NCBI GenBank assembly: GCA_002811645.1
Contig: PDIP01000142.1
Coordinates: 1 to 64,000, forward strand
Length of the DNA stretch: 64,000 nt
Direction: 5' to 3'
DNA from: Corallochytrium limacisporum Hawaii
Taxonomy: Eukaryota; Protista; Pluriformea
Shown here: positions 6,881 to 7,102 of the stretch, piece after piece
Numbering within the stretch: position 1 is the stretch's first letter
How the letters are laid out: every line of letters begins with the position of its first letter
The notes under the pieces: model-generated
What the model was told of the DNA's origin: nothing
Database searches by the model: none
Seen by the model: the letters and a program-made list of their open reading frames with translations, nothing else
Position numbers and translations under genes: made by a program

Positions 6881-7029
6881 TGGGCTAATCTGGACCGATC
6901 GGACTCGGACATGCACCAACATGGAGCTGGCATGATATACAAAATGAAATTAGGACTAAATGCGATACATTAAGGTAAAAGTGCGAAAAAAGAGCAAAAA
7001 ATTAAACGGGGACCGCCGGAATTCGAACC
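6881..7029 (-). repeat. att-like direct repeat copy 1: displaced tRNA-Pro 3' fragment (7008-7029) plus duplicated tRNA downstream flank
   Basis: 6881-6957 is identical to 13661-13737 (77 bp). The remainder aligns with about 8 substitutions and 2 single-base indels by eye. GGGGACCGCCGGAATTCGAACC matches the last 22 nt of the tRNA at 21/22. Weaker similarity extends left to about 6830 (AATCGATT-GGCTTGG, CAATATC). Confidence 0.95.
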
Positions 7030-7102
7030 TTAATATTTTACACAGGTGAAGGAGCAGCCTTATCCCCTGCCCCAGCGCAAGGTGTGCGCAAACGAGTCTT
7101 TC

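Follow-up and report, generated by a model that had tools for sequence, protein, structure and literature searches.

Integration into a tRNA gene that leaves the gene restored is a hallmark of bacterial and archaeal islands. In prokaryotes, three crossover subsites have been described within tRNA genes, namely the anticodon loop, the T loop, and the T/acceptor junction, of which the last two are hard to distinguish (PMC4383910), and the 7-nt loop with its palindromic stem suits a lambda-type core site (PMC8371274). A T-loop class of crossover among prokaryotic tyrosine integrases, which an initial sequence-only reading of the locus reported here had invoked, is thus described in both sources. 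Archaeal att sites can have varied 5′ limits, and there the identical stretch does not define the site (PMC8371274). That reading also placed the eukaryotic B box in the same T arm, in agreement with a report that the box spans tRNA positions 52–62 and that C61 is universally conserved (bioRxiv 2025.06.09.658696).

The eukaryotic elements that we found described either disrupt the RNA gene that they enter, as Starships do in 5S genes and Dada does in tRNA genes, or make short duplications. Starship direct repeats measure 2–16 bp, those at 5S rDNA 6–16 bp, and the 5S insertions are predicted to disrupt the gene (PMC11162782; PMC9156397). Dada elements encode a DDE transposase, duplicate 6–7 bp, and split the tRNA gene in the anticodon arm or A box (PMC8869645). 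Cryptons are thought to move through a circle, a model that is unproven, and have short terminal matches, a pentanucleotide in CryptonS (PMC13565253). Two whispoviruses enter 28S rDNA with an 11-mer duplication (PMC10871703), and no tRNA genes lie close to the insertion sites of cryptophyte polinton-like viruses (PMC12220804).

The window analyzed here is a stretch of 64,000 nucleotides from Corallochytrium limacisporum, a holozoan whose coding sequence is described as containing about 0.0 introns per kb. A Pfam scan of 20 ORFs found the flanking ones to be eukaryotic and nearly intronless (CYFIP, NUP210, IPK1, forkhead-like, SPRING1, and L19e). The only tRNA gene in the window is an intact tRNA-Pro(AGG) at 13790–13861 on the minus strand, detected by ARAGORN and by Rfam (RF00005, 55.5 bits). 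Starting from the intact tRNA, the locus continues with one copy of the flank, the ORF, the element end, the 3′ fragment of the tRNA, the second copy of the flank, and the next host gene. Elsewhere in the window, two NUP210 ORFs flank a snoU83-like C/D box RNA (37086–37171, minus strand; E 3e-4, below gathering), which probably occupies an intron, a rare feature in this genome; a 54-nt inverted repeat (46180–46233 and 46639–46692; 98% complementary, 405 nt apart) is possibly a MITE-like element; and a multidomain protein with FYVE, ABC1 kinase, and beta-lactamase-fold domains is encoded at 52991–56677 (minus strand).

Base-by-base comparison showed that tRNA positions 52–73 are repeated at 7029–7008 on the minus strand with 21 of 22 bases identical, whereas only about 5e-7 such matches would be expected by chance on both strands of the window. 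The repeated fragment (7008–7029, predicted attR) includes the whole B-box interval. Its identity block starts at G52, just before the T loop, and covers all seven loop nucleotides; the loop copy TTCGAAT (7021–7027, minus strand) is identical to the T loop, positions 54–60, of the intact gene (13803–13809, minus strand). The sole mismatch in this tRNA part is a T at 7020 in place of C61 (C61T). On the 5′ side of G52, the two loci matched at only 17 of 50 bases, and their alignment was at shuffle level, being equaled by 1919 of 2000 shuffles and, under lenient global scoring, by 974 of 2000 dinucleotide shuffles. Identity therefore fell from 95% to background within one base at G52, and the repeat boundary is abrupt, since the loci are unrelated beyond it. 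The DNA ahead of the boundary is AT-rich (87% AT in 7030–7044), the 13 minus-strand bases before the G52 copy (7042–7030) reading TGTAAAATATTAA. Base comparison and shuffles thus agreed with the initial description of an identity to the tRNA that begins abruptly at the T arm after AT-rich DNA. Contigs from two DNA sequencing runs spanned the junction with no differing letter (6928–7817 and 6928–9867). As both runs represent one sample, which may be the source of the window, T at 7020 is to be taken as the assembled majority base and not as an independent observation.

Between the stop codon of the ORF and the junction lies a 73-nt element end (7030–7102, minus strand), the predicted P arm, which is AT-rich beside the junction. 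It contains an A-box-like 11-mer (7064–7074, minus strand) placed 45 nt from G52, as compared with 43 nt in the tRNA gene, and sharing 8 of 11 bases with the A-box region of that gene (chance 0.007–0.07, post hoc). Together with the B box, this 11-mer could form a candidate Pol III promoter at the junction, at its best in a circle carrying C61. In addition, the motif CACCT(T/G) occurs twice in the element end (7084 and 7051, minus strand), again near the other end (13198 and 13319, minus strand), and once inverted at the fading edge of the repeat (13614–13620, plus strand). These copies are possible arm-type binding sites, a weak proposal, as the ORF itself is enriched in the motif about threefold relative to host DNA. 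An Rfam search of 6700–7200 identified no family, and no tRNA at E up to 10.

The repeat was found to extend about 160–180 nt past the tRNA end, giving a whole repeat of about 185 nt. Its host-side flank copy (6845–7007, minus strand) continues to the host SPRING1-like gene, and the element-side copy of the tRNA downstream flank (13630–13789, minus strand), a predicted extension of the P′ arm, lies upstream of the ORF. The first 50 nt past the tRNA fragment (7007–6958) carry seven substitutions and two one-base indels between the copies. They are followed by an exact core of 74 identical bases at 6957–6884 (13664–13737 in the other copy), past which the repeat decays, ending near 6845 and 13630, respectively. 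The sequence-only reading, which had noted one change in the fragment, is therefore right for the 22-nt tRNA part but not for the repeat as a whole, which has nine further differences in the next 50 nt. Substitution rates in the tRNA part (1/22) and the flank (7/52) did not differ (Fisher p 0.42), indicating that C61T is not statistically special. Along the repeat, however, the differences were unevenly spread, 8 in 74 and then 0 in 74 (p 0.006), so that the record may be obscured by subsequent conversion or by a mosaic origin. An exact core of this kind within a diverged repeat can be read as recent gene conversion or as a promoter element serving both the SPRING1-like gene and the ORF. No significant RNA structure was detected in the exact core, element end, or flank (z −1.04, 0.30, and 0.62).

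From T loop to T loop the element measures 6,782 bp, of which 6,027 are occupied by a single ORF (7103–13129, minus strand) encoding a protein of 2008 aa, P0001, with two tyrosine-recombinase-like domains whose catalytic-type residues were assigned by motif. Domain 2 (7685–8392, minus strand) has a full catalytic set of R1580, K1618, H1771, R1774, H1806, and Y1815. Domain 1 (10238–10882, minus strand) is degenerate: R750, K829, R926, and Y964 are present, but the first H is replaced by S922. The residues of both domains are kept in a homologue, P0002, and all six of domain 2 are invariant at an overall identity of 42–44%. The box-II pattern was present in both proteins, which only 6 (P0001) and 8 (P0002) of 20000 shuffles reproduced by chance, and in 76 of 78 reference integrases, a mostly HP1-like set; the pattern misses lambda Int and Cre. 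Aligned by hhalign to the 78 integrases, domain 2 gave E 0.0033 and a probability of 9.8%, with box II in register. Neither domain 1 against the integrase profile nor the two halves of P0001 against each other gave an alignment, a custom integrase HMM matched P0001 no better than shuffles (E 13), and Pfam, NCBIfam, PHROGs, and PDB sequence searches returned no match to any recombinase (no Pfam family at E up to 1 and no PHROGs match below E 1). In the ESM Atlas, domain 2 reached 0.96–0.97, all ten named matches belonging to one family or clan and PF00589 appearing in two of three rows, on 36% and 29% of members. Domain 1 reached 0.95–0.96, its nearest neighbors being unnamed eukaryotic clusters, with one row carrying PF00589 on 17% of members. 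Both AlphaFold models were unusable (pLDDT 39 and 38.5), making the empty fold searches uninformative. Taken as a whole, the motif statistics, conserved residues, and ESM features favor a tyrosine recombinase, which is quite likely for domain 2 and less so for domain 1. In domain 2, four cysteines (CxxC ... CxxC) conserved in P0002 separate the K motif from HxxR (P0001 residues ~1720–1750), possibly a zinc-binding insertion within the catalytic domain.

P0002, the sole homologue found for P0001 (42% identity), is labelled Corallochytrium limacisporum and bears the name Clim_evm15s221; Clim is the abbreviation of that species in a supplement table of PMC5560861. It was the only hit of word-based protein homologue searches, which found nothing among shorter proteins, and again the only one when the C-terminal 701 aa served as query in a full HMMER search against 1.84 billion representatives. 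Metagenome and viral contigs yielded no loci of the P0001 family, and tblastn against phages reached only E 5–8 at best. P0001 itself was absent from the homologue listings and may thus be unannotated. DNA-run contigs matching the window also aligned to the ORF in short pieces, and two contig loose ends translated to P0002 peptides (residues 826–835 and 1426–1435), making it likely that one genome carries two diverged members of the family. At residues ~1797–1913, the P0002 gene model ends in a FAM183/CFAP144 domain; the model is likely fused to the next host gene, and the element end would be expected in the skipped interval.

The stretch 6300–13790 was compared with the contigs of four runs. 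In the two DNA runs, contig depth over the element was close to that over the flank (165–187 versus 154, and 562–610 versus 602), and a piece of 77 nt covering the exact core reached about double depth (353 and 1325), which hints, rather than counts, that the genome holds the element once and the exact core twice. No circle joint, empty-site form, or C allele at 7020 was seen among the contigs of the four runs and all but four of their loose ends, an assembled form of data that drops rare forms. In the two remaining runs, presumed to be RNA, the ORF had no contigs other than one of 284 nt and depth 3.5 (12709–12931).

We interpret 7008–7029 as the displaced 3′ end of the tRNA-Pro gene, that is, as attR left by recombinase-driven integration of a circle with predicted strand exchange in the T loop, a reading to which we assign a probability of roughly 0.6. 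That such integration occurred at all is likely. Under this reading, the 6,782-bp element would have entered from a circle by means of its own predicted tyrosine recombinase, strands being exchanged at the 7-nt T loop of the tRNA-Pro gene. The circle would have brought a replacement tRNA 3′ end together with captured flank, restoring the gene, so that the intact copy, the predicted attL, would combine a host 5′ part with an element-supplied 3′ part. Given integration, the T loop is likely the overlap, a prediction from a single locus: the identity comprises the whole loop and only two bases further 5′, making the T loop the simplest choice. The two G's ahead of the loop would pair with positions 61–62 and so form the inner part of a core site with symmetry. 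Dyad symmetry of the predicted attP was confined to the inner 2 bp by the loop (3 of 11), which chance would give 1 time in 16. The proposal that TTCGAAT is the strand-exchange overlap fits the boundary, the recombinase-like ORF, and the island layout, while the 7-nt extent of the overlap comes from one locus. For comparison with bacteria, 18 of the 60 plasmid rows listed (199 records) carry a piece of Escherichia coli pheV, probably reflecting one event; the piece starts at the first T-loop base and extends 18 nt past the gene at 87.8% identity. A phage search with E. coli pheV returned mostly whole phage tRNA genes and was excluded from this comparison.

C61T, the first base 3′ of the predicted overlap (7020, minus strand), for which the contigs list no other letter, is probably ordinary decay, as the first 72 nt of the repeat contain ten differences in all. 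Because C61 is universal, a host gene with U61 before the insertion is unlikely, and the change probably came later, most likely in the inserted state, when selection would no longer have acted on the fragment. As to the earlier suggestion that C61T might block excision, position 61 lies outside the predicted 7-nt overlap, so that its change would not stop strand exchange through homology loss. Weakened binding of the recombinase at the right core site is a plausible effect of C61T. Since C61T would lie in the arm derived from the host, excision through the T loop would plausibly yield a circle with C61 and leave in the chromosome a tRNA with a G53:U61 pair, which could help lock the element in. 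Minimum free energy folding of the tRNA with and without C61T gave −32.5 and −29.8 kcal/mol, values that are uninformative because neither fold was a cloverleaf.

The boundary and the repeat also bear on four other explanations. With the same element and enzyme, the crossover could have taken place 3′ of position 61, at the T-stem/acceptor junction subsite, in which case bases 52–61 of the fragment, T61 included, would stem from the element as an old, inexact version of its target, and excision would return the tRNA to normal. No fresh mutation at a universally conserved base would then be needed to explain T61, the tRNA part is identical over the 12 bases beyond position 61, and the two subsites are hard to separate even in curated data (PMC4383910). 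It gives no reason, however, why nine bases, the loop and two stem bases, should match and nothing further 5′, and with nine more differences nearby C61T needs no special cause; we therefore consider such a crossover unlikely. A crossover on that side would swap the alleles, T61 being element-borne, so that position 61 marks the side of the crossover. Alternatively, no site-specific event took place: a circle that had captured the tRNA end together with flank integrated by homologous recombination, or break repair duplicated DNA next to a recombinase-like gene that was domesticated or stranded, and the boundary is the edge of captured DNA rather than a cleavage site. The length of the repeat (~185 nt) and its 74-nt exact core could support homologous recombination, the contigs continue across the junction and include neither a circle nor an empty-site form, and a family of two known members at 42% identity shows no evident recent spread. 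Yet chance would then have had to put a break no more than 2 nt from a known integrase subsite while sparing the tRNA, all beside a gene with recombinase motifs whose ORF is open over 6 kb with its catalytic-type residues conserved, and this makes such an origin unlikely.

Two further explanations have far lower probability. The succession of direct repeat, insert, and direct repeat would also be produced by a very long target-site duplication during target-primed reverse transcription, with the ORF as a retro-inserted passenger, and the 3′ end of the ORF does face the AT-rich junction. The junction has no poly(A) tail, however, Pfam detects no reverse-transcriptase or endonuclease family, and the uneven divergence and fading 3′ end of the repeat are unlike a single duplication event, leaving this origin very improbable. 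As for a remnant of a whole duplicated tRNA gene with a decayed 5′ part, the A-box-like 11-mer at similar spacing is what it would predict. The 60 nt before the junction nevertheless aligned to the tRNA 5′ part at the shuffle level given above (974/2000), other window pieces aligned to it as well (2047/4242), the Rfam search found no tRNA there, and identity falls within one base; a decayed duplicate is thus scarcely credible.

The boundary is best taken for the attR of a compact eukaryotic recombinase element that is new and restores its target tRNA. Tentatively, and with somewhat less confidence than in an even chance, we propose a new family of eukaryotic integrative elements, minimal in makeup, that combines split-and-restore integration on a nuclear tRNA gene, crossover at the B box, a single-chain tandem recombinase, and a damaged fragment that makes excision costly. 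As part of this same tentative proposal, a tandem recombinase of ~2000 aa with two catalytic domains might engage an asymmetric site at both of its halves. The openly available article texts covered contained no report of two tyrosine recombinase domains in one protein, and none of a eukaryotic recombinase element restoring a tRNA. If the proposal is true, the split-and-restore strategy reaches nuclear Pol III genes in a unicellular relative of animals, and the question arises of how recombinase and TFIIIC would compete or cooperate at the B box. For placing the crossover, the C/T difference at position 61 offers a built-in marker. As an insertion tool, a compact integrase that targets a near-universal tRNA motif would also be of interest.

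Compared with the known eukaryotic systems, the element differs in each case. Like Crypton, it has a single recombinase gene and no inverted ends, and a circle model would apply. DUF3504 is present in many Cryptons. The present element has no DUF3504 match, two domains, and a long repeat, which sets it apart from that group, and the passages of PMC13565253 on Cryptons mention no tRNA targeting. Starships, with Enterprise, Arwing, and Voyager in fungal 5S rDNA, are likewise eukaryotic recombinase elements that occupy a fixed internal position of a Pol III gene, whereas here the tRNA is whole, the repeat is ~185 nt instead of short, the host is not a fungus, and neither a DUF3435 captain nor cargo was found, excluding membership. 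Endogenous nimaviruses and polinton-like viruses encoding tyrosine recombinases share site-specific recombinase entry into eukaryotic chromosomes, the nimavirus enzymes being specific for 28S rDNA and thus for a structural RNA gene. A polinton-like virus, which would carry genes for a capsid and a packaging ATPase, was rejected, as one long ORF fills the element and viral genes are absent, as are PHROGs matches below E 1. Dada elements are similar in inserting as eukaryotic DNA elements inside tRNA genes. DIRS, Ngaro, and VIPER elements were rejected as well, because P0001, which fills 6,027 of 6,782 bp, has no reverse transcriptase or RNase H match.

The closest likeness was to prokaryotic tRNA islands and prophages. 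The Islander criteria concern an end fragment, its configuration and orientation, and a length of 2–200 kb (PMC4383910); here, an intact tRNA gene was accompanied by an end fragment of positions 52–73 (21/22), located downstream and on the same minus strand, with 6,782 bp for the element. An integrase-like gene inside and identity starting at the T arm are shared as well, and some prokaryotic islands also have damaged fragments (148 of 3919; PMC4383910). In contrast to those islands, the host here is eukaryotic and the gene nuclear and transcribed by Pol III, with the B box coinciding with the site; one 2008-aa ORF with two domains, undetected by PF00589, stands without cargo or phage genes; and the repeat extends ~160–180 nt past the gene. 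The element thus resembles a prokaryotic T-arm tRNA island in its workings, while by host and by integrase HMM it is not a member of that group.
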